NCBI GenBank assembly: GCA_038065715.1
Contig: JBBTQL010000006.1
Coordinates: 2,127 to 66,126, forward strand
DNA: 64,000 nucleotides
Direction of reading: 5' to 3'
Source: Patescibacteria group bacterium
Lineage (GTDB): Bacteria > Patescibacteriota > Minisyncoccia > Minisyncoccales > Staskawiczbacteraceae
Positions 1,452 through 57,854 of the stretch are shown here, in pieces. The position numbers were made by a program, and so were the translations under genes. Each line of letters opens with the position of its first letter. The first letter of the stretch is position 1. The notes beneath the pieces are model-generated. The model was not told the DNA's origin. It saw only the letters and a program-made list of their open reading frames with translations, and ran no database searches.

Positions 1452-1473
1452 AAAAAACGGCTTTGCTGTTTTA

Positions 1474-1503
1474 ACGGCTCAGACAGGTCTGAGCCGTTTT
1501 TTT
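1474..1503. terminator. Intrinsic terminator hairpin between convergent genes
   Basis: CGGCTCAGAC / GTCTGAGCCG stem followed by a T-run. Confidence 0.6.
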
Positions 1504-1521
1504 ACAAGGCCGTTTTAAGTT

Positions 1522-1839
1522 TCAGAGCGTTGCTCTGTTTCTTTTTTTCCTTTTTGGAGAGCCGCGATCGTTTTTGTATAAATGAGTTTTGTCCCTGATT
1601 TTTCCATTTTTTCCTTCTTGGCAGAATATTCTAAAGGAGATTTTAAGCCCAACCCTGCTTCTCCATAAGAAGAGGATTAGTCCAGATGGGCACTGCCAAA
1701 GATTACGCTTTTTTCCATCTGCGCAAAGCGTATCCTGCATAGCGTTTTCTTCGCCAATGTTTCTTGATATTACTTCGTTTGACCAGGCAACATCGCCTCT
1801 TGGCTCAATAAACCAAGTATATTCACGCTGTTTTTCCAT
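1522..1839 (-). CDS. Hypothetical small protein (GC-richer ORFan)
   Basis: AAGGAAGG lies just upstream of the ATG. Local composition is GC-richer than the flanks. No motif recognised. The overlapping + strand ORF 1589-1915 looks less protein-like. Confidence 0.5.
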   Translation of the reverse strand: MEKQREYTWFIEPRGDVAWSNEVISRNIGEENAMQDTLCADGKKRNLWQCPSGLILFLWRSRVGLKISFRIFCQEGKNGKIRDKTHLYKNDRGSPKRKKRNRATL

Positions 1840-2020
1840 TTTTTGCCTTCCTTATATTAAAGTGAAGGATTTTGTCAATGTTCAGTGTTTGTTATTTTAT
1901 CATTTTTTGTTATAAAAGTCAAAAAAATGAGTTTAAATTATCCCCAGTTTAGGGGTTGCTTTACTCTTAATTTTAAGGTAAAATAGAAGAATAATAGACT
2001 AAGAAAAATATACTGAAAAT

Positions 2021-3166
2021 ATGAGAAAAAATATAGTTATAGAGGATAAAAAAGAAGCGGAGCTTATTAAAGAATTAGAGGCCAGAAAAGATGTTAAAGC
2101 AGAGAGAATAAAAAGGCTTTTAAAACTACCCGACCTGACAAAAAAAGACAATTCTTCTGTAAAAATTTTGGTTGACCAAATAATAAATTTGCCGCGATTC
2201 AAAGATTTTGATTTGGTTGATTTTCCAAGAATTGTAACAGTAGAACAAAATTTTGATGTTTTAAATGCGCCAAAAGACCATCCAAGCCGTAGAGAATCAG
2301 ATACTTATTACTTAGACGATTCTAATATTTTACGCACGCAGACAACAGCAATGTGGCTGTTTTATCTAAGAAATCCAGAAGTGCTAGAGAGATTAAAGAA
2401 TGAGGGCGAAGTAAAAGCATTGTCATCTGGAATAGTGTTTCGCAAAGACGAAATTGACAAAAAGCATTTTCCGGCCTTTCACCAAATAGATGGATTGTTA
2501 ATCTGCAAAAAAGATAAAAAAGTTATAACCTTGGATGATTTAAAAGAGGTTGAAGTTGAAATGACAAAAAGCATTTTTGGCAGTGATGTTGAATACAGAT
2601 TTTTAGTTGACTCGTTTCCGTTTACCGATCCATCAGTGCAAATTGAAATTAAATTTAATGGAGATTGGATGGAGGTAGTCGGTTCTGGTTTGGTGCATAA
2701 TCAAGTTTTGAAAAATTTTGGACTGGATCCGGAAATTTATAACGGCTGGGCATTTGGATTTGGAGTGGAGAGATTGGCAATGATAAAAATGCAAATTCCA
2801 GATATTAGAATTTTATGGTCGGATGACTCAAGAATAACCAGCCAGTTTAAAGATATAAACAGCAAATATAAAGAAGTAAGCAAGTATCCTGAAACCTCAA
2901 GAGACATTTCATTTGTTATTGATAAAAATATAAATTTAAATAATTATTACGAAATTGTGCGAGATTATGCCGAAAATTTAATTGAAGAAGTAAAGCTTGT
3001 TGACGAGTATGAAGACGAAACAAAATTTGGCAAAGATAAAAAAAGTTATACATTTAGAATAATTTACCGTTCTCCGGAAAGAACTTTAACTAATGAAGAA
3101 ATAAACAAAATCCAGGAAGAAATTCGTGAAAAAACGAAAACAGACTTAAGCGCAATTTTAAGGTAA
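2021..3166 (+). CDS. pheS: Phenylalanine--tRNA ligase, single-chain form: alpha-type catalytic core fused to a C-terminal FDX-ACB anticodon-binding domain
   Basis: Class II core motifs ([42 protein letters not shown]). C-terminal module [14 protein letters not shown]...[22 protein letters not shown]. Collinear with mitochondrial FARS2 as I recall it. No pheT follows. Confidence 0.9.
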   Translation: [381 protein letters not shown]

Positions 3167-3170
3167 AATA

Positions 3171-3779
3171 ATGAATTACGCTTTCATTGATTTTCAAAAT
3201 ACAGATAATACCACAAAACAATTGCTTGGTTTTTCGATTAATTGGAAAAAATTGTACGATTTTTTAAAAAATAATTGGAAATGCGAAAAAGTTTTTTTGT
3301 ATATTGGTGTTGATGATAGAGATATGGAAGCAGGAGAATTATCAGAAGAACTAAAGAGTATCGGATTTGTTGTTAGAGGCAAAAAATTGTTTTCGTATAA
3401 AAATAGGGATAAGGAAATAAATGTTTCTTGTTCTAAATGTGGGAACAAATTTATAGAAAAAATTGATATGGGTTATAACAAAAAAGCTAACTGCGATGTT
3501 GATTTGACTGTTGATGCTATGGATTTGGCCCAAAAAGATAATGTGTTCTATATTTTTACTGGAGACGGGGATTTTGAATTTTTAATCAGAAATGTTATTT
3601 TAAAAGAAGTTAAAACTTATATTATATCCAGCGCCAGAAAAATAAAAACAAGAGGGCACAGATATTTTACTTCGCGTCTTTCAAAAAAATTGAGAATACT
3701 GGCAATGGAAAACAAAGACAAGGTTTATATTATTGAAATAAACAATTTACGAATGAAATTTGCGAAAGATATCCGCTAA
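3171..3779 (+). CDS. NYN/LabA-like (PIN-like) domain protein with an inserted zinc-ribbon-like segment
   Basis: FIDFQN ... CDVDLTVDAMD ... FTGDGDFEFLI motif set. CSKCGNKF insert. Confidence 0.7.
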   Translation: MNYAFIDFQNTDNTTKQLLGFSINWKKLYDFLKNNWKCEKVFLYIGVDDRDMEAGELSEELKSIGFVVRGKKLFSYKNRDKEINVSCSKCGNKFIEKIDMGYNKKANCDVDLTVDAMDLAQKDNVFYIFTGDGDFEFLIRNVILKEVKTYIISSARKIKTRGHRYFTSRLSKKLRILAMENKDKVYIIEINNLRMKFAKDIR

Positions 3780-3893
3780 TAAAAAAAAGGAAAAGGACAC
3801 GAAGCGTGGCCTTTTCTAATGATGAGTTCAGTATATCAAAATAAAAGGCCTTGTCAAGAGGCGTAAACTATTTATAATATTTAGTATAAAAAC

Positions 3894-12261: not shown

Positions 12262-12701
12262 CCAATTGGAAAGTTAACCGTTTTTGCGCGTTTTGTTTTT
12301 TTATCTATTTTTGGAGAAATTATATGAAAATGCAAATGGCTTACAGAGGCGCCAGTATAATCTGTGTTTCCAAATCTCATTGCTACGCCCCCGCCTTTTA
12401 TTTTCCATTTTTTAATTACCCAGTTTGTTAAATAGGCAATTGACTCAAAATCTTTTTTTGTAAGCTCTGAAAAATTTTCTTTATGTTCATCTCCCAAAAT
12501 TATCAGATGATTTTCTGTGTTTTTGTATGGCCAACTATTGTTGCTTAAAAACCACTTGCCGTTTTTTTTATATATTGGCTTTTTATGGTACTTAAAATTT
12601 TCTTTGCAAAATGGGCATTTGCCAGTTGACTCTATCTCTTTGATAATATTTTTGTATTCGCCTTTTCTGGCGTTTTTTATGTTAACAAATTTTTTTGTCA
12701 T
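12258..12701 (-). CDS. HIT family nucleotide hydrolase/transferase
   Basis: Histidine triad HLHFHII. N-terminal CPFC motif. Confidence 0.75.
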
Positions 12702-13243
12702 ACTATCTTTTTTCCATTGCCAAGATAATCTAAAACTGCTTCAACGTGTTTTTTCATTGTTTTTTCAATAATATTTGAAGTAGATGTGTTTTCAGCTTGG
12801 CGGGGTAAAACTAAAACATCTTCTGAATGCGATTTAATGGCTTGAATCTGTTCTTCAGAATAGCTGTCTTTTGTTGCTACAAAAAGGTCAGGAGTTATTG
12901 TTTCTATCAATTTATATTGCCATTTGCCCTTGTCATCAATATCATCGATTAAAGTGATATAATCAACGCAGTCCTGATATTTTAACATTTCCATTCTTTC
13001 TTCTTGCGGTATAATAGGCCTTAATTCATTCTTATAAAGTTTAATACCTCTGTCTGAGTCTACCCCAACAACTAAAACATCGCCTTGCTCCTTTGCTTTT
13101 ATTAAATATCTTAGGTGACCAATATGAAGCATATCCCATGACCCAACTGTGCACACAATCCTGTGTCCTAAGGTTCTGTGGGCATCAATTATTTTTTTTA
13201 ATTCAGCATAGTCAGAAATAATAGATTTTTTTTGATTTTTCAT
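12698..13243 (-). CDS. Cytidylyltransferase-like nucleotidyltransferase (TagD/RfaE domain II-like)
   Basis: GSWDMLHIGHLRYL (HxGH motif). Overlaps the start of the downstream HIT gene by 4 nt. Confidence 0.75.
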   Translation of the reverse strand: MKNQKKSIISDYAELKKIIDAHRTLGHRIVCTVGSWDMLHIGHLRYLIKAKEQGDVLVVGVDSDRGIKLYKNELRPIIPQEERMEMLKYQDCVDYITLIDDIDDKGKWQYKLIETITPDLFVATKDSYSEEQIQAIKSHSEDVLVLPRQAENTSTSNIIEKTMKKHVEAVLDYLGNGKKIV

Positions 13244-13348
13244 AAATAGTTTTGTATTTTCAGTTATTTTAGCAAATCGAACATAGAGATGTCAATGTTG
13301 ATTTACTTGGCGTTTATGATAATATATATCAAAACAAGATAAAAATTT

Positions 13349-13966
13349 ATGGATAAAAATGATGAGCAAATTTTAGTGGTAAAATCAGGCATAATTTTTG
13401 AGAAAGGTGTTTGGCAGGGGTTAAAAACTGATAATTTGGATTATTATATTGATTTGATAAAAAATAACTGTGAATTTAAAAGAAGGGGCGATGCTGAAGA
13501 AGACGATTCTTTTCAGCAGATAATTCCATATATTGTTTTTAACTTTAAGGAACAATATTTTATTTATAAATATTTGCCTGAGGCCGGAGAAAAAAGGTTA
13601 GTTGATACTTATCAACTTGGAGTTGGCGGCCACATAAATCCGATTGATGAAAAAAATGGCAATACTTTGGAAGCTGGAATGATGCGGGAGTGGAATGAAG
13701 AGGTAGATTTTAAGGGAAACATTTTAGAAAAAAAATTAGTTGGATTATTAAATGACGATTCAAGGCCAGTTGAAAGGGTGCATTTGGGATTAGTTTATAA
13801 TTTTGTAGGAGATAGCCCTGAAATTTCTATAAAAGAAACAGATAAAATGGAAGGCAAATTGGTTGATTTAAAAGACATCGGAAAATATATTGAAGGCAAC
13901 AAAGGAATTTGGGTTCAACTGGTTTATAGGGATTATTTATCAAAACCGCAAAATGATAAAAAATAA
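13349..13966 (+). CDS. Hypothetical protein with a degenerate Nudix-like box
   Basis: GGHINPID...EAGMMREWNEEVDF. Confidence 0.5.
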   Translation: MDKNDEQILVVKSGIIFEKGVWQGLKTDNLDYYIDLIKNNCEFKRRGDAEEDDSFQQIIPYIVFNFKEQYFIYKYLPEAGEKRLVDTYQLGVGGHINPIDEKNGNTLEAGMMREWNEEVDFKGNILEKKLVGLLNDDSRPVERVHLGLVYNFVGDSPEISIKETDKMEGKLVDLKDIGKYIEGNKGIWVQLVYRDYLSKPQNDKK

Positions 13967-14564
13967 TTATCCGGGCAAATTTATTGTTGTTGAGGGGCTT
14001 GATGGCTCTGGAAAATCGGCTCAAGTTGATTTAGTTATTGATTATTTAAAACAACAGGGCAGAGAAGTTGTTGTTACAAAAGAACCAACTGTTGAATCTG
14101 AAGCTGGAAAAAAAATAAAGCAAGCGCTCAGAAATGAAATAACCGTTGAGCCTTTAGAACTACAAAAATTATATGTGCAGGATAGGCGCGAGCATTTAGA
14201 AAACAAAGTAATTCCCGCGCTGAAAGAAGGAAAATTCGTAGTTTCAAGCAGGTATGCTTTTTCAACATTTGCATATGGACATTCTGACGGATTAGACGTT
14301 GATCTGTTAGTAGAATTGAACGAGGAGTTTATATTGCCGGACTTAACAATTATTATTGATGTTCCGCCTGAGTCCTGCATAGAAAGAATAGAAGGCAGGG
14401 GGGAGCCAAAAGAATTATTTGAAAAAAAAGAAAAATTAACAAAAGTAAATGAGATTTATAAAAAAATTCCTGAAATATTTGAAAACGTTATTATGATAAA
14501 TGGAGAGAGGCCAATATCTGAAGTTTTTATCGACATTAAAAAAACAATAGAAAAAGTTTTATGA
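13953..14564 (+). CDS. tmk: Thymidylate kinase
   Basis: P-loop VVEGLDGSGKS. The internal ATG at 13953 is preferred over 13890. Confidence 0.9.
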   Translation: MIKNNYPGKFIVVEGLDGSGKSAQVDLVIDYLKQQGREVVVTKEPTVESEAGKKIKQALRNEITVEPLELQKLYVQDRREHLENKVIPALKEGKFVVSSRYAFSTFAYGHSDGLDVDLLVELNEEFILPDLTIIIDVPPESCIERIEGRGEPKELFEKKEKLTKVNEIYKKIPEIFENVIMINGERPISEVFIDIKKTIEKVL

Positions 14565-15050: not shown

Positions 15051-16565
15051 ATGGCATACAAACCAACAATTGGATTAGAAATACACGCAGAACTAAAAAC
15101 ACAGAGTAAAATGTTTTGCGGCTGTAAAAACGATCCAGATGAAAAACGGCCAAATTTTAATATTTGCCCGGTCTGCACAGCTCAGCCGGGATCTCTGCCT
15201 GTTGCAAACGAAGAAGCAATAAAAAAAGTTATAAAAACTGGGCTTGCTTTAAATTGCGAAATTGCAGAAAATTCAAAATTTGACAGAAAAAACTATTTTT
15301 ATCCAGATTTGCCAAAAGGTTATCAAATTTCACAATATGATCAGCCACTGTGTACTGGCGGATTTTTGGAAATAGAAGGTAATCCTTCGGCAGGCTCAGG
15401 ACGTAGAAAAATAAGAATTACAAGAATACATTTAGAAGAAGATACAGGAAGCTTGATGCATCCGGACGGCACGGATTACTCCCTGGTTAATTTAAACAGG
15501 GCAGGGGTGCCTTTAATGGAGCTGGTTACAGAGCCAGATATTATTTCAGGAAAACAGGCCAGAGAATTTGCAGAAGAACTTCAATTAATTTTAAAATATT
15601 TAGGTGTTTCCGATGCTGATATGGAAAAAGGGTTAATGAGAGTCGAGGTTAATATAAGCGTCAGTGATAATCATAAACTGGGAACTAAAGTTGAAATTAA
15701 AAACTTGAACTCATTTAAAGTTGTTGAAAAAGCCGTTGATTTTGAAATTAAAAGGCAGACAGAGTTATTAGAGGCAGGAGAAAAAATTGTGCAGGAAACA
15801 AGGGGCTGGCACGACAAAAAAGAAATTACTTTTTTACAAAGAGAAAAAGAAGAAGCGCATGATTATAGATATTTTCCTGAACCTGATTTGCCTTCACTGC
15901 ATTTTGATAAAAAATTTATTAATGGAATAAAAGCAACAATACCTGAATTGCCAGAGCAAAAAAGAGAGAGGTTTAAAAAAGAATACGGCTTAAATGAGCC
16001 TTTGATTGAAATTTTTGTTTCCAATAAAGACCTTAGCGAATATTACGAAAAAGTTGTTTCTGAATTTGAGCAGTGGCTTAAAGATGAAGCCGCCTCCGCC
16101 TTCGGTACGCCAAAGGCGACAGAAGCTACGGCGAGTCAAGGAAAAAAAATATTTAAGATGATTGCCAATTATTTAATTTCAGATGTTCAAGGTTTGCTTT
16201 TAGGAAAACAGTTTATTGAAACTGACTTCAGAATTACACCAGAAAATTTTGCAGAATTTATTAAAATGATTTATAAAAACGAAATTTCAAGCAAGGTGGC
16301 AAAAATGGTTTTAGCAGATATGTTTAATACGGGCTCTGACCCTTCAACCATTGTAGATGAAAATAATTTAAGGCAGATGTCAGACAATTCTGAACTTGAG
16401 AAAATTATAGAAGAAGTCATTTCAAAAAATTCAAAAGCTGTTGAAGATTATAAAAAAGGAAAACAAAATGCTCTGCAATTTTTAGCAGGGCATGTGATGG
16501 CTGAAACAAGAGGAACAGCAAATCCAGAAAAAGTTAGGGAACTATTGAACAAGCTACTGAATTAA
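15051..16565 (+). CDS. gatB: Asp/Glu-tRNA(Asn/Gln) amidotransferase subunit B
   Basis: PTIGLEIHAEL, CPVCTAQPGSLP, RIHLEEDTG. C-terminal YqeY-like tail. Confidence 0.95.
   Translation: MAYKPTIGLEIHAELKTQSKMFCGCKNDPDEKRPNFNICPVCTAQPGSLPVANEEAIKKVIKTGLALNCEIAENSKFDRKNYFYPDLPKGYQISQYDQPLCTGGFLEIEGNPSAGSGRRKIRITRIHLEEDTGSLMHPDGTDYSLVNLNRAGVPLMELVTEPDIISGKQAREFAEELQLILKYLGVSDADMEKGLMRVEVNISVSDNHKLGTKVEIKNLNSFKVVEKAVDFEIKRQTELLEAGEKIVQETRGWHDKKEITFLQREKEEAHDYRYFPEPDLPSLHFDKKFINGIKATIPELPEQKRERFKKEYGLNEPLIEIFVSNKDLSEYYEKVVSEFEQWLKDEAASAFGTPKATEATASQGKKIFKMIANYLISDVQGLLLGKQFIETDFRITPENFAEFIKMIYKNEISSKVAKMVLADMFNTGSDPSTIVDENNLRQMSDNSELEKIIEEVISKNSKAVEDYKKGKQNALQFLAGHVMAETRGTANPEKVRELLNKLLN
16086..16140 (+). 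repeat. GC-rich element family 2 (GAAGCCGCCTCCGCC...GGCGAG.CAAG), in frame in gatB
   Basis: gaagccgcctccgccttcgg...ggcgagtcaag, encoding EAASAFGTPKATEATASQG. Confidence 0.75.
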
Positions 16566-16580: not shown

Positions 16581-16625
16581 AAAAAAACAGCCCCGACTCG
16601 CATAAAGCAAGCTGGGGCTTTTTGA
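16581..16625. terminator. Bidirectional intrinsic terminator
   Basis: An A-run, then the AGCCCC ... GGGGCT stem, then a T-run. Lies between convergent gatB and the 129-aa ORF. Confidence 0.65.
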
Positions 16626-16638
16626 TTTGTTTGGAGGC

Positions 16639-17028
16639 CTAGTAGTGAGGCCTTGGCGTTGGATCGGCAATGCCGCAGAAGTTGTCAAAAGGGTTGGTAT
16701 GCCGCCCCAACAAATAGAATGCGCAAGGAAGGATCATTGGTGGAGTTGCTTTGTTTCCGTGCGGGCAAGTCCTGTGGAGGATTATCAGCGTTTCTCTGTC
16801 TGGGCCGCCTGCGCGAATCCAAACTTCTCCGTTTTCAAGGACTGCTACCGTATGGCCTTCGTTGTAGCCCCAGCTGCCAAGCTGATAATGCAAAGCCTGT
16901 ATAGGCTCCTCTTCGTCCATGCCTGCTGTGTGGTCGCACACTGGCAAGCCAGTCACGTGGATGAACTTTTTTCTTATCAGTTCATTCCTTTGGTCTTTAA
17001 TCGGCATTGTTGCGGCTGTTGCGTTCAT
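16639..17028 (-). CDS. Hypothetical protein (GC-rich ORFan cassette)
   Basis: GGGAGG Shine-Dalgarno just before the ATG at 17028. The most protein-like of three overlapping ORFs. Markedly GC-richer than its neighbours. Confidence 0.55.
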   Translation of the reverse strand: MNATAATMPIKDQRNELIRKKFIHVTGLPVCDHTAGMDEEEPIQALHYQLGSWGYNEGHTVAVLENGEVWIRAGGPDRETLIILHRTCPHGNKATPPMILPCAFYLLGRHTNPFDNFCGIADPTPRPHY

Positions 17029-17081
17029 GGGTAGCCTCCCTTATCTCAAAAGAACAAATATTGGTTAAAACCCAATAATTA

Positions 17082-17110
17082 AGTATATCATTTTAAAATG
17101 AAGTTGTCAA
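17082..17110 (-). promoter_or_regulatory. Sigma70-type promoter TTGACA-N17-TATACT for the 129-aa ORFan
   Basis: Minus strand reads ttgaca acttcattttaaaatga tatact. The -35 box lies inside the last codons of miaA. Confidence 0.5.
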
Positions 17111-18089
17111 TAGTCTGCGTAATTTTTTTATAATTATTTAGCCAATTTATTTTTTTGCTTCCCCCGCATCTAACTTGTTCTGGCGCGGGGTGTCTTCTAA
17201 ACCAAGTCATCTGGTGCTTTGCAAAATGCTCTGATTCTATTTGAATTTTATCTATCATTTGTTGATATGTAATTTTATTTTGTCCCGATTTTGTCGAGGA
17301 TCCTCGATTGTTTTGCAATCGGGATAAATATTGCGCGACGAAACGATATTCTAAACCAAATTCTTCAAGGCGTTTCCATGACAAGCCAGCTATATGAAGT
17401 TTTTTAACCTCATTTATCATTGCCTGATTACGTAATCGATTAAGCAATCTTTTACGTATTAATTTTTTTAATTCAATAGGAGATTTTGCAATTCCTATTT
17501 GCAACACAGAAAATTGCGACGTCTGCCGTTGCAATTCTGGCACTGGCTTTTTTGTAGTTAAAACAATTTCTAATGCCCTTATCAATCTGCGGGGGTTTTG
17601 CCTGTCAATTAATTCAGCCCGTTTTGGGTCTAATTTTTTTAATTTTTCAAAAAGTTCTTCGTTGCTCAATTTTTCCAATTTTTTTCGTAATTTCCAGTCG
17701 GGTTTTACTTCAGGGATAATAATTCCATCAACAACAGATTGTATATAAAAACCGGTTCCGCCAACTAAAATAGGCAGTTTGTTTCTTTTTTGAATATCTT
17801 TAATTACTTTCAGCGCTAATTTTTGATATTGAGCCACAGTAAATTTTCTTTTTGGATTTGCCACATTTAAAAGATGATGGGGGATTCCTCGCATTTCTTT
17901 TTTAGTTATCTTTCCAGAGCCGATATCCATTCCTTTATAAATTTGCCTTGAATCAGCCGAAATAATTTCTACGCCCTTAATGCCAAGTTTTTTAAATCGT
18001 TGCCCTTCGGCTATGCTCAGGGCCAATTTGATGGACAAATTGGTCTTTCCAGAAGCGGTGGGCCCCAAAATTACAATAAGTTTATTCAT
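17088..18089 (-). CDS. miaA: tRNA dimethylallyltransferase
   Basis: P-loop GPTASGKT. VGGTGFY. Confidence 0.9.
   Translation of the reverse strand: MNKLIVILGPTASGKTNLSIKLALSIAEGQRFKKLGIKGVEIISADSRQIYKGMDIGSGKITKKEMRGIPHHLLNVANPKRKFTVAQYQKLALKVIKDIQKRNKLPILVGGTGFYIQSVVDGIIIPEVKPDWKLRKKLEKLSNEELFEKLKKLDPKRAELIDRQNPRRLIRALEIVLTTKKPVPELQRQTSQFSVLQIGIAKSPIELKKLIRKRLLNRLRNQAMINEVKKLHIAGLSWKRLEEFGLEYRFVAQYLSRLQNNRGSSTKSGQNKITYQQMIDKIQIESEHFAKHQMTWFRRHPAPEQVRCGGSKKINWLNNYKKITQTIDNFILK
18001..18025. repeat. GC-rich hairpin, in frame in miaA
   Basis: tgcccttcggctatgctcagggcca, encoding part of LALSIAEGQRF. Confidence 0.5.
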
Positions 18090-19381
18090 TTAATTATTTT
18101 TGCTTTTAATGTAAAGGGCGCAACTTCGGTTATTTTTACTTTTACTAATTTTCCTAAAATATTTTTGTTTGATTTCACTTTAATCGTTTTGTATTGTTCG
18201 TTTTTGCCAAACCAGTAATCGCCGCGATTACTGTCTATTAAAACCATTGTTTCTTTTCCAATTAGTTTTTTGTTTTTTTCTAAAGCAGTTTGTTTTAAAA
18301 TTTCTGTTAAAACTTTTTCTCTGCGTTTTTTTTCAACAATTGAAACATCATCTTTTAATTTAGCGGCAGCAGTGCCAGTTCGCGGGGAATATTTGTTTAT
18401 ATAAGCCATATCAAATTTAATTTCACGGAAAAGTTTTGCAGTATTTTCAAATTGTTTTTTTGTTTCTCCAGGGAACCCAACAATTATGTCTGTGGACAAG
18501 GCAATGTTTTTAATTTTTTCTCTTAATTTTTTAATTTTATTTTTATAATCTTTTACAGTATAATGCCGATTCATTGATTTCAAAACTTTATCATCACCAG
18601 CCTGAACGGGCAAGTTTAAGTAGGGCGTCACCTTCTTACAAGTTGCCATCGTTTTTATAGCTTCGTCATTAAAGTCTTTTGGGTGGCTGGAAGTAAACCT
18701 TATCCAAAATTCGCCAGGGATATCATTTACCGTTCTTAATAATTTTGGAAAATTTATGCTGTTATCTTTATAGCTATTAACATTTTGCCCCAAAAGCCAA
18801 ATTTCCTTTGCCCCGCGAAGCCTTGGCGAAGTGGGGTTTGTAATATTTTTTATTTCTTGAATAATGTTTTTGGCTGGCCGCGAAATTTCCCTTTCGCGGG
18901 TGTAGGGGACAACGCAATAGGCGCAAAAATTATTGCAGCCTGTCATTATTGGCACATTAGCTGAAAATTTGTTTGAATATTTTGGAGTTATATCTAAATA
19001 ATCACCCTCGTCATATTTTAAGCGATAGCGTGAAATATGACGAGGGTTGGTTTTTATAATTTTTGGGATTTTTTTTATGTTTTTTATATCCAAAACGCAG
19101 TCAAAACCTTTTATAAAAATATTTTTGTCTTTTTTTAAAACACAGCCGGTTAAAATTGTTTTTAAATTTTTATTATTTTTTCTGATATTTTTAAATTTTT
19201 CAACAAGACCGTGAACGCGGTTTACCGCAGACTGCCTGACAGAGCACATTGCCACAACAACTAAATCTGCCTCTTTAAGATTAGAAGTGTTTTTATATTT
19301 TACAGAATCTAAAATCGTGGCAATTCTTTCAGAATCAGATATATTCATTTGGCATCCATATGTTATAATGTGATATTTCAT
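18086..19381 (-). CDS. miaB: tRNA-2-methylthio-N6-dimethylallyladenosine synthase
   Basis: N-terminal YGCQMN. Radical SAM GCNNFCAYCVVPYTRERE. C-terminal TRAM-like domain. Confidence 0.9.
   Translation of the reverse strand: MKYHIITYGCQMNISDSERIATILDSVKYKNTSNLKEADLVVVAMCSVRQSAVNRVHGLVEKFKNIRKNNKNLKTILTGCVLKKDKNIFIKGFDCVLDIKNIKKIPKIIKTNPRHISRYRLKYDEGDYLDITPKYSNKFSANVPIMTGCNNFCAYCVVPYTREREISRPAKNIIQEIKNITNPTSPRLRGAKEIWLLGQNVNSYKDNSINFPKLLRTVNDIPGEFWIRFTSSHPKDFNDEAIKTMATCKKVTPYLNLPVQAGDDKVLKSMNRHYTVKDYKNKIKKLREKIKNIALSTDIIVGFPGETKKQFENTAKLFREIKFDMAYINKYSPRTGTAAAKLKDDVSIVEKKRREKVLTEILKQTALEKNKKLIGKETMVLIDSNRGDYWFGKNEQYKTIKVKSNKNILGKLVKVKITEVAPFTLKAKIIK
18811..18836. repeat. GC-rich hairpin, in frame in miaB
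   Basis: ccccgcgaagccttggcgaagtgggg, encoding PTSPRLRGA. Confidence 0.55.
19005..19046 (-). repeat. Palindromic element family 3 (CCCTCGTCA...TGACGAGGG), 42 nt, in frame in miaB
   Basis: ccctcgtcatattttaagcgatagcgtgaaatatgacgaggg, with a 14-bp perfect stem. Inverted orientation relative to the copies at 30617 and 31310. Confidence 0.85.
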
Positions 19382-22989: not shown

Positions 22990-24612
22990 TTAACGGATTT
23001 CTTCTTTTTTTTCTTTTATAAAATATCGCCATCTCTCCAAAAACTCAACAAAAACAGAGAATGGCATATCAATTAAAGCATTAAAAAAAGTGGCAATGGC
23101 ATTGTATTGTTTCCATGTGTTTGAAAGCCATTGTCCAATTCCAGCCATCGGCAGAAATAATATATCAGACACAAAGCTAAAAAAACTTTCTGATTCTTCT
23201 TCAATTGTCAGCTCTTCTGCGCGTTTTCTGATTGCCTTGCCCGCAAAAAGTATTAAAGTAATAAATACTATGTTTATTATAATTGAAGTAATGGAGAATT
23301 TAAAGAAATTGAAAATCCAAATAATTGTTCCAAGGGATATTACAGCTCCCAGCGAGTAAAAAATAGAAATAATTAATCTTGTGAAAAACCCTCGTTTTTT
23401 TTGTATTTTTATTTCATATTTATCTATCTTTTCTTTTTGATATGCAATTTTCATTGTTTCCATTACAGCTATGCTTAAGTTTCTGTTAGAAGGTTTTTTT
23501 ATTGTTGCAACTAAAATAAACATTAAAATAGTTGGTATTAAAATATCTGCCGCCAATAAAATAAAATTAAGATGCCCAGTAAGTATTTTAGACAGCAATA
23601 CTTCCAATAATACTAAGGATAAAACTTTGGTTAAAAAAATAGATAGAGTTGAATAAATAGCCGCCCTTTGAAGCCTTGCTTTAAGCGTGGATAACCTTTT
23701 ACCATAAGCTGATTTTATTAAATTTTCTAATACGGCTGGGTCTTGTATTTTTTTGCCAATTTCTAAAGGATTGTCAGCGGATAATATATCTCCCAATAAT
23801 AAATACGGAGTGTCGTATTTTTCGCAAATTGCATAGAATTTTTTTAAAAGAGGGTGATTCAGTTCTTTTTCTATTTTATTCCATATTTTATAAATATTTT
23901 GAGCTATTTTAAAAAGCAAATCATCGCTGTTTTTGTGCCAATTCGGGTATTTATGCGTTATAAGATTATAACTTATAATCGGCTTGTCTAATTTAAAAAG
24001 AGCTTGTTGAACCGCAATATAAATTTGCATATCCTCGTCCTCTTTTTTTAACAAATCCCTTTCAAAAATATTTTCGCTTACTTTTATTCTTTCTTTCATC
24101 AACTCAAACATATAATCTATTAAAGCTCTCTCTTTTATGGCTGGAACTAAAATTTCTTCTATTTCGCAGGCAGTAATTTCTAAAAGCCAATTGTAAAATT
24201 GCAGTCCAGCTTTGCCCTTTTTATTTTCTGGGCTGTTTTTCAAAATAAAAACATATTTGTCTATTACTTTTTGAGCATCAGCGATTTTTGATTCTTCAAT
24301 TTTGTCATTTAAAAAGTGCCCCCCGCGGATCAATTCTAAAACCAAAGGTTCTGCTATTTGTTCATTGGGCGAAAAATTGCTTAGTTCTAAATCGAAAAAT
24401 CTCCTTTTTAATTTTCTTATAATAGCTGCCCTGCGCATTAAATGTTCTTCTTTCCAGTCAACTATTGTTCTTATATGCTCGTAAAAAGCAGCCACCCTTT
24501 GGGCAACTTCGTCAACATGTAAGGTTAAAACGCCTTCTTTTGGCTTTAAAGATTGCTGCCAGAGATTATATTTTGAAATTAAATTTTTTGTGGCCGCAGA
24601 AAGTTCTGCCAT
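22990..24612 (-). CDS. Hypothetical multi-pass membrane protein
   Basis: 540-aa ORF with several hydrophobic helices in the C-terminal third. No catalytic motif recognised. Confidence 0.6.
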   Translation of the reverse strand: MAELSAATKNLISKYNLWQQSLKPKEGVLTLHVDEVAQRVAAFYEHIRTIVDWKEEHLMRRAAIIRKLKRRFFDLELSNFSPNEQIAEPLVLELIRGGHFLNDKIEESKIADAQKVIDKYVFILKNSPENKKGKAGLQFYNWLLEITACEIEEILVPAIKERALIDYMFELMKERIKVSENIFERDLLKKEDEDMQIYIAVQQALFKLDKPIISYNLITHKYPNWHKNSDDLLFKIAQNIYKIWNKIEKELNHPLLKKFYAICEKYDTPYLLLGDILSADNPLEIGKKIQDPAVLENLIKSAYGKRLSTLKARLQRAAIYSTLSIFLTKVLSLVLLEVLLSKILTGHLNFILLAADILIPTILMFILVATIKKPSNRNLSIAVMETMKIAYQKEKIDKYEIKIQKKRGFFTRLIISIFYSLGAVISLGTIIWIFNFFKFSITSIIINIVFITLILFAGKAIRKRAEELTIEEESESFFSFVSDILFLPMAGIGQWLSNTWKQYNAIATFFNALIDMPFSVFVEFLERWRYFIKEKKEEIR

Positions 24613-26484: not shown

Positions 26485-26513
26485 TTGACAAAAGTGTATT
26501 ATGGGTGTATGAT
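26485..26513 (+). promoter_or_regulatory. Sigma70-type promoter TTGACA-N17-TATGAT
   Basis: ttgaca aaagtgtattatgggtg tatgat, followed by TAATATAG. Confidence 0.5.
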
Positions 26514-26592
26514 TAATATAGCACACAATAGGTTTTTTTCTTAGCCGAGCTTGTCGCGAGGCAGAAGAAGACCAAACTACAGGAGTTCTGTT

Positions 26593-26916
26593 GTGGACAG
26601 TTTTTCTAAATACATCGTTGTCGCTGTTGCTTTTGTAACCAGCATTGGTGTTGTGGCGCTTGTTGTGTTGGATAAAAAAAACACAAATCAGCCCCTGCAT
26701 CAGGAATCAGCTAAGGCGGAAAGCGATCAAGGACATCAAGAGGAGGCCGACAAGATTGTTAGCCAGATTAGGTATATCAAGGATGAGCGAACCGAACTAT
26801 GTTTTGCCTATATCTTGGACGAACAGGGGAAAATTCAGTTTTTCACCTGCGTGCCAAGCAACATGGTTCAACCAAAGTTGCTAAAAATTGGCAAGACGGA
26901 GGGCAAACAGCCTTAA
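26593..26916 (+). CDS. Hypothetical small membrane-anchored protein (GC-richer cassette)
   Basis: AGGAG lies 7 nt before the GTG at 26593. N-terminal TM helix (YIVVAVAFVTSIGVVALVVL). The ORF track starts at TTG 26551. Confidence 0.5.
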   Translation: MDSFSKYIVVAVAFVTSIGVVALVVLDKKNTNQPLHQESAKAESDQGHQEEADKIVSQIRYIKDERTELCFAYILDEQGKIQFFTCVPSNMVQPKLLKIGKTEGKQP

Positions 26917-26947
26917 GTAATAAAAGGACTTAGCAGGCCTACTGCTT

Positions 26948-26977
26948 ACCGCATTGAAATATATGCGGTTTTTTTAT
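26948..26977 (+). terminator. Intrinsic terminator
   Basis: ACCGCAT / ATGCGGT stem followed by TTTTTTT. Confidence 0.7.
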
Positions 26978-30315: not shown

Positions 30316-30344
30316 TTGACAACAATAAAAAATAGGTGTATAGT
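30316..30344 (+). promoter_or_regulatory. Sigma70-type promoter TTGACA-N17-TATAGT
   Basis: ttgaca acaataaaaaataggtg tatagt. Confidence 0.5.
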
Positions 30345-30405
30345 TAAATATATGGGTGGCTTGTTGCTATCTCATATAAAAAGCCTAATTCTGAAAGGAA
30401 AATAC

Positions 30406-30519
30406 ATGGACGAAACAGGCGATAGGTTTAGGGCTATTCTTTTTGGAGCGGTAATTGTCGCGACATTGTTTGCCTTAGCTATGTTGATAGCGGTGGCTGG
30501 CGGTATCGGCGGCAATTGA
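30406..30519 (+). CDS. Hypothetical 37-aa single-TM peptide
   Basis: AAAGGAAA precedes the ATG at 30406. Sequence MDETGDRFRAILFGAVIVATLFALAMLIAVAGGIGGN. Flanked by its own promoter and terminator. Confidence 0.4.
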   Translation: MDETGDRFRAILFGAVIVATLFALAMLIAVAGGIGGN

Positions 30520-30556
30520 CGTTTTGGTCTGCGGCATCAGATGCTTTGCAGACTCG

Positions 30557-30585
30557 GCTGTAGTGTTTTACACTACAGCTTTTTA
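30557..30585 (+). terminator. Intrinsic terminator
   Basis: GCTGTAGTG / CACTACAGC stem followed by TTTTT. Confidence 0.7.
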
Positions 30586-30616
30586 TATTATAAATTCGTC
30601 TTTTTCTACTTTTTTA

Positions 30617-30658
30617 CCCTCGTCATATTTCACGCTATCGCGTGATTTCTGACGAGGG
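30617..30658 (+). repeat. Palindromic element family 3, intergenic copy
   Basis: ccctcgtcatatttcacgctatcgcgtgatttctgacgaggg. The 41 nt at 30618-30658 are identical to 31310-31350. Confidence 0.9.
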
Positions 30659-30679
30659 TTTTATTTTGTGATATAATAA

Positions 30680-30751: not shown

Positions 30752-31288
30752 ATGAATAAAACTAAAGAAAAAATATTACTACTTTTATTGGGCGGACTAG
30801 CCTTTGGTTGCAGTTATACATTTGGCAAACAACGTATGGTTTTGAAAACCGTTTCACGGGAATGGAAAAAATTAAACCCAAAAGAACTAAGAGAGGGAAT
30901 AAGTTATTTATATAGATTAGAATTTATTGATAAAAAGGAATATGAAAATGGATTAACCACATTGTCGCTTACAAAAAAGGGAAAGTTAAAAGCGCTGAAT
31001 TTTCAATTAGAAAATATAAAAAATAAAAAAGAGAAATGGGACGGAAAATGGAGAATGGTGGCATTTGATATTCCAGAGAAATATAAAAAAGGCAGAGATG
31101 CTCTGCGTCAAAAACTAAAAAAGATTGGTTTCTGCGAATTACAGAAAAGCGTTTTGATAACGCCTTTCAATTGCAGAGAGGAGATAGGGCTTTTAGTAGA
31201 TTTTTTTAATTTGGAAAAATATGTGCGCTTTGCTGTTTTGGAATTTATTGATAATGAATATTATTTAAAAAAAGTTTTTAAATTATAA
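30752..31288 (+). CDS. PaaX-like (winged-helix plus Cas2/VapD-like fold) putative transcriptional regulator
   Basis: WDGKWRMVAFDIPEKYKKGRDALRQKLKKIGFCELQKSVLITP matches the PaaX-family central motif as I recall it. Confidence 0.65.
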   Translation: MNKTKEKILLLLLGGLAFGCSYTFGKQRMVLKTVSREWKKLNPKELREGISYLYRLEFIDKKEYENGLTTLSLTKKGKLKALNFQLENIKNKKEKWDGKWRMVAFDIPEKYKKGRDALRQKLKKIGFCELQKSVLITPFNCREEIGLLVDFFNLEKYVRFAVLEFIDNEYYLKKVFKL

Positions 31289-31309
31289 TAAATATTATGT
31301 TAATTTAGA

Positions 31310-31350
31310 CCTCGTCATATTTCACGCTATCGCGTGATTTCTGACGAGGG
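31310..31350 (+). repeat. Palindromic element family 3, intergenic copy
   Basis: cctcgtcatatttcacgctatcgcgtgatttctgacgaggg, identical to 30618-30658. Confidence 0.9.
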
Positions 31351-31413
31351 TATGTTGCATATGTTGTTTTATCGTTTTATCGTTTTATTGTTGTCTTATT
31401 ATTATTTTATTTT

Positions 31414-32142
31414 ATGAAATACCCGAATTTTAATGAAGAAAAAAAGTTATGGAAAAAAGGATATAAATATATAGCTGGTTTAGATGAAGCAGGCAGAGGG
31501 CCTTTGGCGGGGCCAGTTGTTGCTGCGGCTGTTGTTATATTAAATCCCAATGACCAAATTCCAATGACCAACAAAATTATAAATATCAAAGCTCAAAAAA
31601 ATTTTGGACATTGGACATTGGGGTTTGGGATTTCTGAAATTAAAGATTCAAAACAACTTTCATATAAAAAACGAGAGCAACTTTATGATATTATTACAAC
31701 AAATCAAAATATTAAATGGGGAGTTGGCATTGTTTCAGAAAAAGTTATTGATAAAATAAATATTCTTGAGGCAACAAAATTGGCTATGAAAAAATCGATT
31801 AAAAATTTAAATCCTGATTTTTTGTTGATAGACGGAAATTTTAAAATAAATATAGATGAAGCCGCCTCCGCCCCGCCATGGCGGCGCTTCGGCGAGCCGA
31901 AGCAAAAGTCTATCATAAAAGGAGATTCAAAAGTTTTTTCAATATCTGCCGCATCAATTATTGCCAAAGTTACAAGAGATAGAATAATGAAAAAAGAGCA
32001 TAAAAAATATCCGCAATATGGATTTGATGGGCACAAAGGATATGGCACAGCTTTTCATTTTAAAATGATTAAAAAACACGGCTCGTGCAAAATTCACAGA
32101 AAAAGTTTTTGGCCCGTCAGCAGTTACAATAATGCAAAATAA
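31414..32142 (+). CDS. rnhB: Ribonuclease HII
   Basis: [33 protein letters not shown]. Carries two apparent in-frame insertions. Confidence 0.9.
31542..31633. repeat. AT-rich composite palindrome, in frame in rnhB
   Basis: aaatcccaatgaccaaattccaatgaccaa ... ttggacattggacattggggtttgggattt, encoding about 25-30 extra residues between the AAV and DSKQLS motifs. Confidence 0.6.
31858..31902 (+). repeat. GC-rich element family 2, in frame in rnhB
   Basis: gaagccgcctccgccccgccatggcggcgcttcggcgagccgaag, encoding [15 protein letters not shown]. Confidence 0.8.
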
Positions 32143-32179
32143 AAAGCCCTGATCGTCCATAATCAGGGCATGTTTTTTG

Positions 32180-34183
32180 CTACTCTGTCGTAGCTACTTC
32201 TACTGCGTTTTTAACGGATGGCCAGTACCTCCATTCGTAGGTCATTGACCGCCAGTTAGTTTTCCATGAGCTTGCAGTAAACTTTGGTTTTTTTATGCCA
32301 TCAATGCTTCCGTACTTTTCTATAGTCTTTTTTTTCCAGTTTGCCTCCATTCTCCTTATTTCCTTTTCATCTTGACCAGGCTTATTTAATGGAGACATGT
32401 CCATATCTATTTCCACTGGCTTTATAGCGGCGTAAGTATTGCCAATCCTTAGTACGATTATCTTTTTTACGGGAACTAAAACCTGTGGCAGACTTTTACC
32501 CTTGCTATCACTAAAGCCTGTTTGATTCAGTCCCTTGAACTCGTACTTGGAAGGGTCGGTAATCTTGCTGATATCAGTTTCGTCTATAAGGGCGAATAAC
32601 AAAAGCCCTTGTCCGCTGTTTTTTGCTTCTTCTGTTTCCAAAAAAATAGTGATAGCGCCATTCGGACTCGAAGGAATGGGGCCAATTGATCCTCGCCAGC
32701 CGGTTTTAATAGATCCAACAGTGAACGCAGAAAAACTAGGCCAGATGTTTTGGTTTGCCGGTAATTTATTTTTACCGGATACTGACTGGAGAAGGCTATC
32801 TGGAGTTTTACCGCTTGAAACCATTGGCATATTTGCTTTTAAGCCCAATGGATTACAGTAAAAGAATGCTTCTGGAACAAAATCCAAGAGCATGCTCAAC
32901 TCTCCACCGCCGTCCCACAGCCTTAAAATGCCTTTCTCATCTCTAAATATAAAGGCATTGTTGCTTATCCAGTGGTATTTGCTGCCTTTTATTTCAGTGA
33001 TGATTGTTTTTGGCTGGATTGGGAAAACATTATTCACCGGCAAGTTGCGGAAAGAATATTTTGGATGTTTTACCAAACCGCTGTTTTTGATGCCGTTTTT
33101 TATTTGTTCTCCATCCAGTAAAAATACAGTTCCTTCTGAAAAAAAAGCAAGCCCGCCGTCTGGTTCTGGTTTCCATGCCAAGCCTTCGCAGTTGCGAAGT
33201 TGCACCGGTATTTCATAAATCCCAGGGTGTAAGTTTTTAGATACTTTGCCTGTTGCGCTATTTCTTATCATAGCTTGGCTTTGTCCTCTAATTTCAATAG
33301 GACCCCATCCAAAAGGAGTTTGGTATATTACAGCAAACAGTTCTTCATCAGGATTTTCGGCCGTTAACCAGACTGCGAAATGTCCGTCTCTCCTAAATGA
33401 AAACCTTTTAATGCACTCGTTTCCCATAAGGCTTGCGTTAGCCTCTATGTCATGCTCGGGTCCACTAAAAACAAGAGGATTTTTGAATTTATATGCATCT
33501 TCTCCAAAATATGACGGGTTTGTTCTAAAAGGCCAGACTGGCGCGCAGAAATTAGTGTTTCCGCAGTATTGCCAAGCAGGCAATGGCGACGGCATGTTGC
33601 CATTAATATCTTTTTTGAAAAAGACAACAGCGTTGCACACATCTTTTTTTGCTATATACAGCGGCCAATATTGGGCAACATGCGGCTTATACTTGGCAAA
33701 CCACATTTTGTCTATTTCGCTCCCCGGCTTTATGGGAACCATAGAGTCGCCTGTTTTTTCAAGCTCAAAAGATATATTGTTTCCGTTTCTTGAAACAACA
33801 ATATTTTTGGCAGACTGCGGCACAATCACGTCTGTAATTCCGTTTGCAACCTCTCTATCTTTTCCAATAGGTTTGAAAACAGTTCTCTTAAGAGTATATG
33901 ATTTTCCGTTAGGCAGAAGCTTTATCCAAAGCTTGCGGTCCTTTATCCAAAATAGAGTTGTTCCATCCTCTGAAACAGTGAAAGGATCGTTGCCGATTGT
34001 TTCCTCAACGCCGCCTGTAAGGTTTATCCGCTGTTTTGTTGTGAAATCGCAGTAAACAAGGTCTTTGCCGTCAGAGAAAACAATGCCTCCCGGGATTTCT
34101 TTGGCTTTTGCAGAAACGCAAAGAGCCAAAAAGATCAAAACTATCAAAACGATCAACCAGAACAATGCGATTGCCTTTTTCAT
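32180..34183 (-). CDS. Hypothetical secreted protein (GC-richer), possibly beta-propeller-like
   Basis: Signal/TM MKKAIALFWLIVLIVLIFLALCVSAKA from the ATG at 34183, preceded by GGGAG. The ORF track extends to 34282. Own promoter upstream. Confidence 0.65.
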   Translation of the reverse strand: MKKAIALFWLIVLIVLIFLALCVSAKAKEIPGGIVFSDGKDLVYCDFTTKQRINLTGGVEETIGNDPFTVSEDGTTLFWIKDRKLWIKLLPNGKSYTLKRTVFKPIGKDREVANGITDVIVPQSAKNIVVSRNGNNISFELEKTGDSMVPIKPGSEIDKMWFAKYKPHVAQYWPLYIAKKDVCNAVVFFKKDINGNMPSPLPAWQYCGNTNFCAPVWPFRTNPSYFGEDAYKFKNPLVFSGPEHDIEANASLMGNECIKRFSFRRDGHFAVWLTAENPDEELFAVIYQTPFGWGPIEIRGQSQAMIRNSATGKVSKNLHPGIYEIPVQLRNCEGLAWKPEPDGGLAFFSEGTVFLLDGEQIKNGIKNSGLVKHPKYSFRNLPVNNVFPIQPKTIITEIKGSKYHWISNNAFIFRDEKGILRLWDGGGELSMLLDFVPEAFFYCNPLGLKANMPMVSSGKTPDSLLQSVSGKNKLPANQNIWPSFSAFTVGSIKTGWRGSIGPIPSSPNGAITIFLETEEAKNSGQGLLLFALIDETDISKITDPSKYEFKGLNQTGFSDSKGKSLPQVLVPVKKIIVLRIGNTYAAIKPVEIDMDMSPLNKPGQDEKEIRRMEANWKKKTIEKYGSIDGIKKPKFTASSWKTNWRSMTYEWRYWPSVKNAVEVATTE

Positions 34184-34311
34184 AGCACTAGCTCCCGTTA
34201 ATGTTTGCCTTGTTAAATATCTTCCAAAATACAATTTTAGAAGATGCGCCAGAAGTAGGGCGTTTAACAGGCAAGTTGTCAAGGTGCTTTCTATATTAAC
34301 TATCTATATTA

Positions 34312-34339
34312 ACTATATGATGTCATAATGTTTTGTCAA
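34312..34339 (-). promoter_or_regulatory. Sigma70-type promoter TTGACA-N16-TATAGT
   Basis: Minus strand reads ttgaca aaacattatgacatca tatagt, followed by TAATATAG. Confidence 0.45.
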
Positions 34340-34505
34340 GTCTTCACCATACTTATTAAAAAAGTTATCCACAGATACAAATAATTGACATACTTGTTTT
34401 AAAATACATAAAAAGTTAAAATAATAAAATATGTAAATAATGTTAAATTATTAAACTGTTAATTTTCAACAATTTAATAGCAAAGTAATTTAGCAATTCA
34501 ATCAA

Positions 34506-42255: not shown

Positions 42256-42281
42256 AATTCGCCTCAAAAAGCGGATTTTTG
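42256..42281 (+). terminator. Putative terminator after rpsP
   Basis: AATTCGC / GCGGATT stem running into TTTTT. Confidence 0.45.
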
Positions 42282-42298
42282 GTTTAAACAGCGTGCTA

Positions 42299-42326
42299 TT
42301 GACAAGCTTTTTAATAGTGGTATAAT
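42299..42326 (+). promoter_or_regulatory. Sigma70-type promoter TTGACA-N16-TGgTATAAT (extended -10)
   Basis: ttgaca agctttttaatagtgg tataat, followed by TAATATATAG. About 200-nt leader before the ATG at 42536. Confidence 0.55.
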
Positions 42327-42913: not shown

Positions 42914-42928
42914 AGTTCATGGCCTATT

Positions 42929-57850: not shown

Positions 57851-57854
57851 AGGA

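Follow-up and report, generated by a model that had tools for sequence, protein, structure and literature searches.

A GC-rich, self-promoted small gene at the miaA/gatB slot of Patescibacteria is probably an old resident and not a recently acquired cassette

Introduction

Must a GC-rich islet with its own expression signals, set among the housekeeping genes of an AT-rich genome, be foreign DNA? The question is raised by a short unit, here called U2, at positions 16581-17110 on the minus strand of a 64,000-nucleotide stretch of Patescibacteria DNA (the window). The window is a contig of a metagenome-assembled genome (MAG) from Hainich groundwater, and its GC content is 35.6%. A sequence-only reading of this DNA had grouped U2 with five other units of similar build and had proposed that they are laterally acquired or mobile modules, each made of a promoter, an open reading frame (ORF), and a terminator. 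We refer to the six units as U1 (1522-1878, minus strand), U2, U3 (starting at 26485), U4 (starting at 30316), U5 (starting at 34339, minus strand), and U6 (starting at 42299).

The U2 protein is present in NCBI as AAB352_01465 ("MAG: hypothetical protein", Patescibacteria group bacterium), and an identical protein is found on the Hain_H43 contigs of ENA ERZ1292635. The nearest species-level relatives carry the label Candidatus Staskawiczbacteria. The comparison set comprised 78 related loci with 1,024 ORFs; the loci are labelled L005, L007, and so on, and L005/L008 is the sister genome. Horizontal transfer has been reported to be common among groundwater Patescibacteria in a general treatment that does not concern these units (PMC12455944). 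A full-text literature search turned up no description of a class of GC-enriched, self-promoted small genes.

Synteny and descent of the U2 gene

U2 was probably inherited vertically; it would be an old but dispensable occupant of the slot between miaB-miaA and gatB in Staskawiczbacteria- and Nealsonbacteria-like Parcubacteria. The gene order around U2, with names from Pfam labels, is gatB, U2, miaA, miaB (Table 1). We looked up the encoding locus of each family member in ten genomes carrying the U2 family. The gene directly follows miaA in nine of the ten, and it faces gatB wherever the contig reaches far enough. The miaA/gatB slot is occupied by U2 in the window, L005/L008, L007, L009, L090/91, L092, L094 (which is labelled Nealsonbacteria), and L176; in L178, the gene of the U2 family follows miaA. 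The family is known so far only from AT-rich Patescibacteria-like contigs.

The identity of the U2 protein to that of the window is 66% in L005/L008, 48% in L007, 44% in L009, 41% in L090/91, 38% in L094, and 32% in L092. It declines in step with the identity of GatB, which is 81, 79, 77, 76, 70, and 69.5% in the same order. Compared with the sister genome, the synonymous divergence (dS) of U2 is 1.36, and that of eight core genes ranges from 0.47 to 1.32; the synonymous divergence of U2 thus agrees with that of the flanking core genes.

The expression signals (promoter, leader, ribosome-binding site, and terminator) are conserved along with the gene in every ortholog. The TTGACA at the miaA tail is kept in nine related genomes as (I/L)-D codons. 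In genomes with the U2 gene, MiaA ends in ..(I/L)-D-x-F.., whereas in genomes without it MiaA ends in ..KL(I/V)K.F.., and no TTGACA is present there. Because this TTGACA occurs only alongside the U2 gene, the promoter appears to be selected for and to shape the MiaA tail. An extended -10 of the form ATGA(T/C/A)A...T is kept in all related genomes examined that carry U2, and an equivalent terminator hairpin follows the gene in all relatives. A leader hairpin followed by GTTCTTT..AGGAGG recurs in L005, L009, L090, and L094; the U2 leader of L007 has GTTCC instead of GTTCTTT.

Composition of the U2 gene

The GC content of the U2 ORF is 0.52, compared with 0.35 in the flanks, and its GC content at third codon positions (GC3) is 0.56, compared with 0.26-0.29 in the neighbouring genes. 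In a 500-nt profile, GC rises from 0.33 to 0.49 at U2 and then falls back. The same offset is found throughout the family: in all ten genomes the gene has a GC content of 0.48-0.57 and a GC3 of 0.48-0.60 (0.26-0.31 in the flanks), and the remaining locus has a GC content of 0.34-0.39. At two-fold sites, C/(C+T) is 0.43-0.74 in the U2 orthologs and 0.17-0.40 in the flanking genes, and G/(A+G) is 0.40-0.57 and 0.15-0.40, respectively. The GC content at four-fold sites is 0.44-0.62 and 0.28-0.48. The codon signature of U2 is alike across nine genomes.

Between 47 and 61% of third positions differ among the U2 orthologs. These positions have turned over and GC3 has nonetheless stayed high, so the GC-richness is maintained and is not the remnant of a recent transfer. 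That the composition offset is equal in all nine genomes likewise argues against un-ameliorated foreign DNA. The synonymous sites of U2 rest at a gene-specific equilibrium.

These results bear directly on the proposal that U2 is a recently, laterally acquired or mobile cassette of promoter, ORF, and terminator set between housekeeping genes. Such a cassette would account for the atypical composition just described, for the presence of U2's own expression signals, and for a slot that lacks U2 in many relatives and holds other GC-rich small ORFs elsewhere, and it would fit the reported frequency of horizontal transfer in groundwater Patescibacteria (PMC12455944). It is difficult to reconcile with the same gene occupying the same place in nine of ten family-carrying genomes, with a dS equal to that of the flanking core genes, with an identity that tracks that of GatB, and with a GC3 that remains high despite synonymous saturation in the deeper comparisons. 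The -35 of U2, moreover, is built into the miaA reading frame. No direct or inverted repeat family touches the region from 16.5 to 17.2 kb, the window's sole recombinase, at 54978-56579, is 38 kb distant, and U2 has no PHROG match. There is no tRNA target at U2; the window contains tRNAs at 54987 and 61039 only. The sequence-only reading had itself named synteny across relatives with similar composition as evidence against mobility, and this is the pattern observed. A recent transfer of U2 is largely refuted, and we regard the mobile cassette as very improbable.

What keeps the gene GC-rich is a separate matter. The ordinary codon bias of highly expressed genes was considered and rejected as the cause of the high GC3; rplK, rpmF, and rpsP do not have the signature. 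There are two candidate causes: selection acting on the mRNA, and gene conversion with a GC bias at slots prone to recombination. The second would leave the gene and its history as described above; the slots would be recombination hot spots at which alleles are swapped between related strains, and the GC content would be a product of conversion. This would also explain the patchy presence of U2 and the variable occupancy of slots between conserved flanks. Every synonymous class, including four-fold sites, is shifted toward G/C in U2, U3, and U6, and the units evolve fast (nonsynonymous divergence, dN, of 0.11-0.41, compared with 0.02-0.10 for the slower core genes, among them KH, p540, DnaE, GatB, and TrmD), as conversion would allow. 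In U5, however, four-fold sites are unshifted (0.31), whereas two-fold C-ending codons are shifted (0.52). A shift limited to two-fold C-ending codons looks like selection and not like conversion. Furthermore, the dS of the units is not consistently above or below that of the flanks. We consider gene conversion an unlikely cause, albeit one to be taken seriously.

A broader proposal is equally tentative, and we would not bet on it: in Parcubacteria, a class of small self-promoted accessory genes would have its synonymous GC content held far above equilibrium by selection, and U2 would be a new fold working with the tRNA-modification or translation machinery. Such selection could favour, for example, mRNA survival, or it could come from translation under a regime of its own in a cell that is very AT-rich and poor in tRNAs.

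The U2 protein family

U2 is a protein-coding gene under purifying selection. Differences between U2 and its ortholog in L005 amount to 0.20 at first, 0.19 at second, and 0.47 at third codon positions, the dN/dS relative to the sister genome is 0.16, and the homologs share sequence motifs. A profile built from three U2 sequences, searched against 1.84 billion cluster representatives, matched 156 representatives at E<=1e-3, of which 29 reached E<=1e-10; almost all of the proteins are 110-150 aa long. U2 is therefore not the ORFan that it had been taken for. Word-indexed searches recovered far fewer sequences: two homologs when U2 was the query, and 9 proteins, all named "hypothetical protein", when a profile from a 40-sequence alignment was used. 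Cluster look-ups for the family yielded scarcely any taxonomic labels other than Staskawiczbacteria, Nealsonbacteria, and "Patescibacteria group". Motifs shared by the 40 aligned sequences are GF(V/I)HVTGL, IQA, LGxW..NNG.TV.V..GEVW, CPxGxGAxVPCSNGE, and R..DPY.

None of the 40 family members matched Pfam, and U2 had no match in NCBIfam, PHROGs, or PADLOC. The same four collections gave no match for any of the six unit ORFs, as expected from the description of these ORFs as lacking a recognisable motif. An AlphaFold2 model calculated from the 40-sequence alignment reached a pLDDT of 92.4 and a pTM of 0.86 and predicts a helix, a small sheet, and two further helices, in this order. It supersedes an earlier, shallow model from three sequences (pLDDT 68), for which the fold search was empty. 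Foldseek searches with the model found no neighbour in the PDB (best E=0.68, TM<=0.25) and none among the viral predicted structures in BFVD (best E=0.6). The best match of the U2 profile to PDB sequences was to an RCC1 repeat, with E=0.2.

The product is predicted to be a soluble, cytosolic protein of approximately 14 kDa. From the conserved adjacency only, one might suppose that the protein is a cytosolic factor, abundant and linked to MiaA, tRNA, or translation; we offer this as a tentative suggestion that is more apt to be wrong than right.

A GC-rich island with its own promoter and terminator in an AT-rich genome is also typical of structured non-coding RNA genes, such as those for RNase P RNA, tmRNA, and 6S RNA, and ORFs of approximately 130 codons are open on both strands of U2, which could make the U2 ORF incidental. 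Against this, Rfam searches of U2 were empty at the gathering threshold and at E<=1, ARAGORN found no tmRNA, and the folding z-score of the 495-nt U2 transcript relative to shuffled sequences is just -1.2. The codon-periodic substitutions, the dN/dS of 0.16, the 156-member protein family, and the confident structure model point the same way. The antisense ORF (16627-17034, plus strand) was rejected as a true gene. It is exactly codon-antiparallel to the U2 ORF, is open only because the sense ORF avoids TTA, CTA, and TCA, and is broken in L005 and L009. The non-coding RNA is already refuted as the principal explanation of U2, and we assign it next to no probability.

Structure of the U2 transcription unit

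We have good confidence that U2 forms a transcription unit that is complete in itself and encodes a small soluble protein. All parts of the build described in the sequence-only reading are present: TTGACA, a 17-nt spacer, TATACT, a leader, a GC-rich ORF, a terminator, and a -35 located inside miaA (Table 1). The promoter scores 11 of 12 against the consensus. The signals match a sigma-70-type promoter and an intrinsic terminator and are kept in relatives; transcription itself is read from the sequence. The terminator folds as ((((((.((((((.....)))))).)))))) followed by U8. It had also been proposed that the units interrupt housekeeping operons, which does not apply to U2: the gene closes the miaB-miaA series and sits between convergent genes.

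RNA polymerase carrying the housekeeping sigma factor would initiate at the near-consensus promoter and give strong constitutive transcription from a start near position 17076. The -35 is contained in the last miaA codons, and the extended -10 takes its TG from the miaA stop codon. The transcript would begin with the small 5' hairpin, which may stabilise it, and a strong ribosome-binding site should then allow efficient translation. It would end at a hairpin that is probably shared with gatB, which ends at 16565 and approaches from the opposite side. Since T-runs are present on both strands of this hairpin and an A-run on one of its sides, it is probably bidirectional and would terminate the convergent gatB as well. 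No terminator lies between miaA and U2; therefore, read-through from miaBA should add to the output of U2's own promoter.

A class of GC-enriched genes with their own promoters

U2 is one of a class of small accessory genes, found across the lineage, that are GC-enriched, have strong promoters of their own, and occupy variable slots between core genes. In the window, TTGACA-N16-18-TAnnnT occurs nine times compared with 2.3 expected, and none of 100 shuffles reached nine. Five of the nine are promoters of the listed units, and these five score highest among the promoter-like sites of the 16-35 kb and 41-45 kb regions. Across the 78 loci, a perfect TTGACA-N16-18-TAnnnT is found upstream of 29% of the ORFs with a GC content more than 0.07 above the locus median, compared with 5.7% of the ORFs within +0.03. 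With the GC-enriched ORFs split off at +0.07, Fisher's test for the association with the promoter gives p=1e-12. The association also holds when only ORFs preceded by a spacer of 80 nt or more are counted (37% of GC-enriched ORFs and 14% of the others, p=4e-6), and among short ORFs the fractions are 34% and 20%. Most members of the class are predicted to encode envelope or secreted proteins, whereas U2 would be cytosolic.

Near-consensus promoters are also present at housekeeping genes: dnaE (30312), KH (43070), trmD (43499), and the gene at 12698-13243 (promoter at 13295). The TTGACA type thus looks like the normal strong promoter of the lineage. The sequence-only reading had held that such a result would undermine its case; the promoter does serve core genes, yet GC-enriched ORFs carry it five times more often. 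No ORF follows one further near-consensus promoter site (3830-3857, minus strand; TTGACA-N16-TATACT, with the -10 extended by an upstream TG), which is in the 3779/3894 intergenic region. It faces the terminator of the upstream plus-strand gene and is divergent from the promoter at 3851 (plus strand) of the gene at 3894. The site may give rise to a short antisense RNA, or the match may be due to chance.

The distance between miaA and gatB spans -14 to 2302 bp among relatives, and that between rpsP and KH spans 123 to 3056 bp. Both slots are empty in some relatives and contain unrelated genes, including diverse GC-rich small ORFs, in others. Because the slot content differs among relatives, genes do turn over at these positions. 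L018 contains two U3 paralogs (13304-13992), L135 has three ORFs with GC contents of 0.52-0.59 between rpsP and KH (2248-3459), and L131 has a 208-aa ORF with a GC3 of 0.69 (552-1178). These multiple GC-rich small ORFs suggest local duplication and turnover of the gene class.

The claims made for the six units as a group fared unevenly. The compositional contrast was confirmed: GC contents are 0.52 in U2, 0.47 in U6, 0.45 in U3, 0.41 in U5, 0.40 in U4, and 0.37 in U1, compared with approximately 0.33-0.35 in core genes. Terminators were found as well, by a scan in U3, U4, and U5, and in the sequence and fold in U2, U6, and U1. The shared promoter build holds for U2-U6; at the U1 site at 1878, the -10 reads TATAAG and not TATnnT, and a better site is located at 1922. 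The string TTAATATAG, said to follow several of the promoters, occurs four times compared with 1.1 expected, a count reached by six of 100 shuffles and therefore not significant alone, although it is kept in the orthologous promoters of relatives. As a class with a shared build, the units stand across the 78 loci. Lateral acquisition or mobility is not supported for U2, nor, at the depth examined, for U3, U5, and U6, which are syntenic in relatives too.

The other units

The features of all units are listed in Table 1. U3, U5, and U6 have dN/dS values of 0.21-0.31 and dS values of 0.46-1.32, inside the range of the core genes. The dnaE/thrS gap, which holds U3 in the window, also contains homologs of U3 (dN/dS 0.24) in L005/L008 (80% identity), in L018, which has two, and in L033. 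Six relatives carry a U5 homolog at the corresponding position, namely L008 (74%), L050, L011, L025, L015, and L009, and the GC3 of these homologs is 0.38-0.60; promoters of the form TTGACAA..TATA(A/G/C)T TAA precede those of L008, L011, L025, and L015. Homologs of U6 (dN/dS 0.31) lie between rpsP and KH in L088 (55%), L101, L110, and L164. The leaders of U3 and U5 homologs contain (G/C)TTCTTT or GCTCTTT strings similar to the GTTCTTT of U2.

The sole perfect DnaA box of the window, TTATCCACA, lies at 34365-34373, directly upstream of the U5 promoter. TGTGGATAA(C/G) after TGTCAA is kept upstream of the U5 homologs in L008, L050, L011, L025, and L015. This box may mark a DnaA-regulated promoter or an origin-related element. 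The U6 leader (42327-42535) is 209 nt long compared with approximately 80 nt in the sister genome; it is overlapped by an antisense ORF (42264-42470) and has no Rfam match.

No homologs of U4 or U1 were found in the related loci by tblastn, blastn, or jackhmmer. The divergent promoter block of U4 and dnaE is kept in L008 and L010, and in L008 the conserved block is followed by another hydrophobic peptide, of 41 aa, which has a terminator of its own. Type I toxin-like peptides are membrane peptides of 30-50 aa with a strong promoter and an overlapping antisense RNA; U4 was compared on the peptide and the promoter only, and both are present. The C-ending codons typical of the class are seen in U1 too, where C/(C+T) at two-fold sites is 0.57.

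Table 1. Coordinates of the U2 unit, its neighbours, and the other units in the window.
Feature	Position	Strand	Remarks
gatB	15051-16565	+	Pfam label
U2 terminator	16619-16580	both (probable)	intrinsic terminator hairpin and T8; A8 on one side, T-runs on both strands
U2 CDS (coding sequence)	17028-16639	-	ORF 16639-17028; 129 aa, predicted soluble, without hydrophobic N-terminus; undescribed family of approximately 125-145 aa
U2 ribosome-binding site, GGGAGG	17040-17035	-	six bases ahead of the ATG at 17028
U2 GTTCTTT motif	17055-17049	-	few bases upstream of the ribosome-binding site
U2 leader hairpin, TTGG-GTTTTAA-CCAA	17075-17061	-	5' hairpin, seen in the minimum-free-energy fold
U2 5' leader (predicted)	17029-17076	-	hairpin, GTTCTTT, ribosome-binding site
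U2 -10, TATACT	17087-17082	-	after a 17-nt spacer; TG two bases upstream
U2 extended -10, TGATATACT	17082-17090	-	TG supplied by the miaA stop codon TGA
U2 -35, TTGACA	17105-17110	-	within the final miaA codons ..T-I-D-N.. (formed by ..ATT GAC..)
miaA	17088-18089	-	Pfam label
miaB	18086-19381	-	Pfam label
U1	1455-1922	-	CDS 1839-1522, 105 aa; terminator-like hairpin approximately 1505-1455
U1 likelier promoter, TTGACT-N17-TAAAAT	1922-1894	-	TG upstream
U3	26485-26976	+	promoter 26485-26513; terminator 26948-26976
U3 CDS	26593-26916	+	GTG start; 107 aa; N-terminal membrane anchor
U4	30316-30585	+	promoter 30316-30344, divergent from the dnaE promoter at 30312; terminator 30556-30585
U4 peptide	30406-30519	+	37-aa hydrophobic peptide
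U5	32141-34339	-	promoter 34339-34312; terminator 32169-32146
U5 CDS	34183-32180	-	667 aa; N-terminal signal or anchor
U6	42299-42974	+	12/12 promoter 42299-42326; 209-nt leader; terminator approximately 42929-42973
U6 CDS	42536-42913	+	125 aa; membrane anchor, coiled coil, C-terminal domain

Other elements in the window

A palindromic repeat of approximately 68 nt, with the core CCCTCGTCATATTTCACGC-TATC-GCGTGAAAT.TGACGAGGG, is present in three copies at 18993-19060, 30605-30672, and 31297-31364. One copy lies in frame within the miaB CDS, and the other two flank a PaaX-like gene (30752-31288), which in the sister genome is located across dnaE, on its other side. The repeat resembles Rickettsia palindromic elements, or else a small mobile unit. 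It is a better candidate for mobility than the flagged cassettes.

The region 54978-61122 is a probable integrated element with a GC content of approximately 0.41. Its large serine recombinase (Resolvase, Recombinase, and Zn_ribbon_recom domains) overlaps tRNA-Gly(CCC) at 54987-55059 on the opposite strand. The element also contains an internally repetitive 877-aa protein (57855-60488), a LOOT RNA (60648-60770, 73.6 bits), and tRNA-Thr at 61039.

A 540-aa protein without a Pfam or NCBIfam match (22990-24612, minus strand) is among the most conserved genes of the window and always adjoins thrS. Its identity to the sister genome is 94%, with a dN/dS of 0.05, and it is 58-73% across Staskawiczbacteria-like loci.

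Discussion

U2 is best read as an old gene that was lost repeatedly, although several points weigh against this account of its descent, signals, and role. L177 is the sole one of the ten family members that lies in a different context. miaA and gatB abut, with U2 absent, in L010, L015-L018, L023, L035, and L070. As these are equally close relatives, transfer among relatives through recombination in the flanks, instead of repeated loss, is possible. The ribosomal protein genes lack the codon signature, so high expression alone does not explain the GC3. The backbone synteny of the clade is high anyway, which makes the adjacency to miaA weak evidence on function. Finally, the promoter and terminator of U2 are consensus matches only.

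With vertical descent as the preferred interpretation, a GC-rich islet with perfect expression signals in a reduced, AT-rich genome need not be foreign DNA, and U2 is a warning against composition-based island detection in Patescibacteria. A GC3 approximately twice that of the genome, maintained across saturated synonymous divergence, provides a natural test case for the causes of codon composition, be they selection, biased conversion, or mutation. The family itself, approximately 130 aa long and undescribed, has a fixed genomic address, a confident predicted fold, and no known relatives, and is a tractable target for work on structure and function.

Protein families without Pfam annotation reportedly distinguish the bacteria of the candidate phyla radiation (CPR), as Meheust et al. 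are said to have described in 2019. U2 resembles these lineage-restricted uncharacterised families: its protein is small, has so far been found only on AT-rich Patescibacteria-like contigs, and matches nothing in Pfam, NCBIfam, PHROGs, or PADLOC. Compared by description, it differs from them in its fixed slot after miaA, its promoter inside miaA, and its GC3 of about twice the genome value.

The slots share conserved flanks, variable content, and atypical composition with genomic islets and hypervariable slots; however, they are without integrases, tRNA targets, and repeats. The content of the units is also GC-richer than the host, whereas that of usual islets is AT-richer, and U2 is old and vertically inherited. 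Integron cassettes are similarly compact single-ORF units of unknown function, but they lack promoters and end in attC beside an integrase. In contrast, the units described here have their own promoters and ordinary intrinsic terminators, with no shared 3' repeat, no attC-like site, and no integrase nearby.

Promoters embedded in the 3' ends of upstream genes and bidirectional terminators are part of general bacterial organisation, and U2 does not differ from it in principle. Its promoter overlap stands out in that it is kept over deep divergence and appears to constrain the MiaA C-terminus. In kind, then, U2 is ordinary: a monocistronic gene that has a promoter and a terminator. What makes it odd is the persistent, gene-specific GC3.

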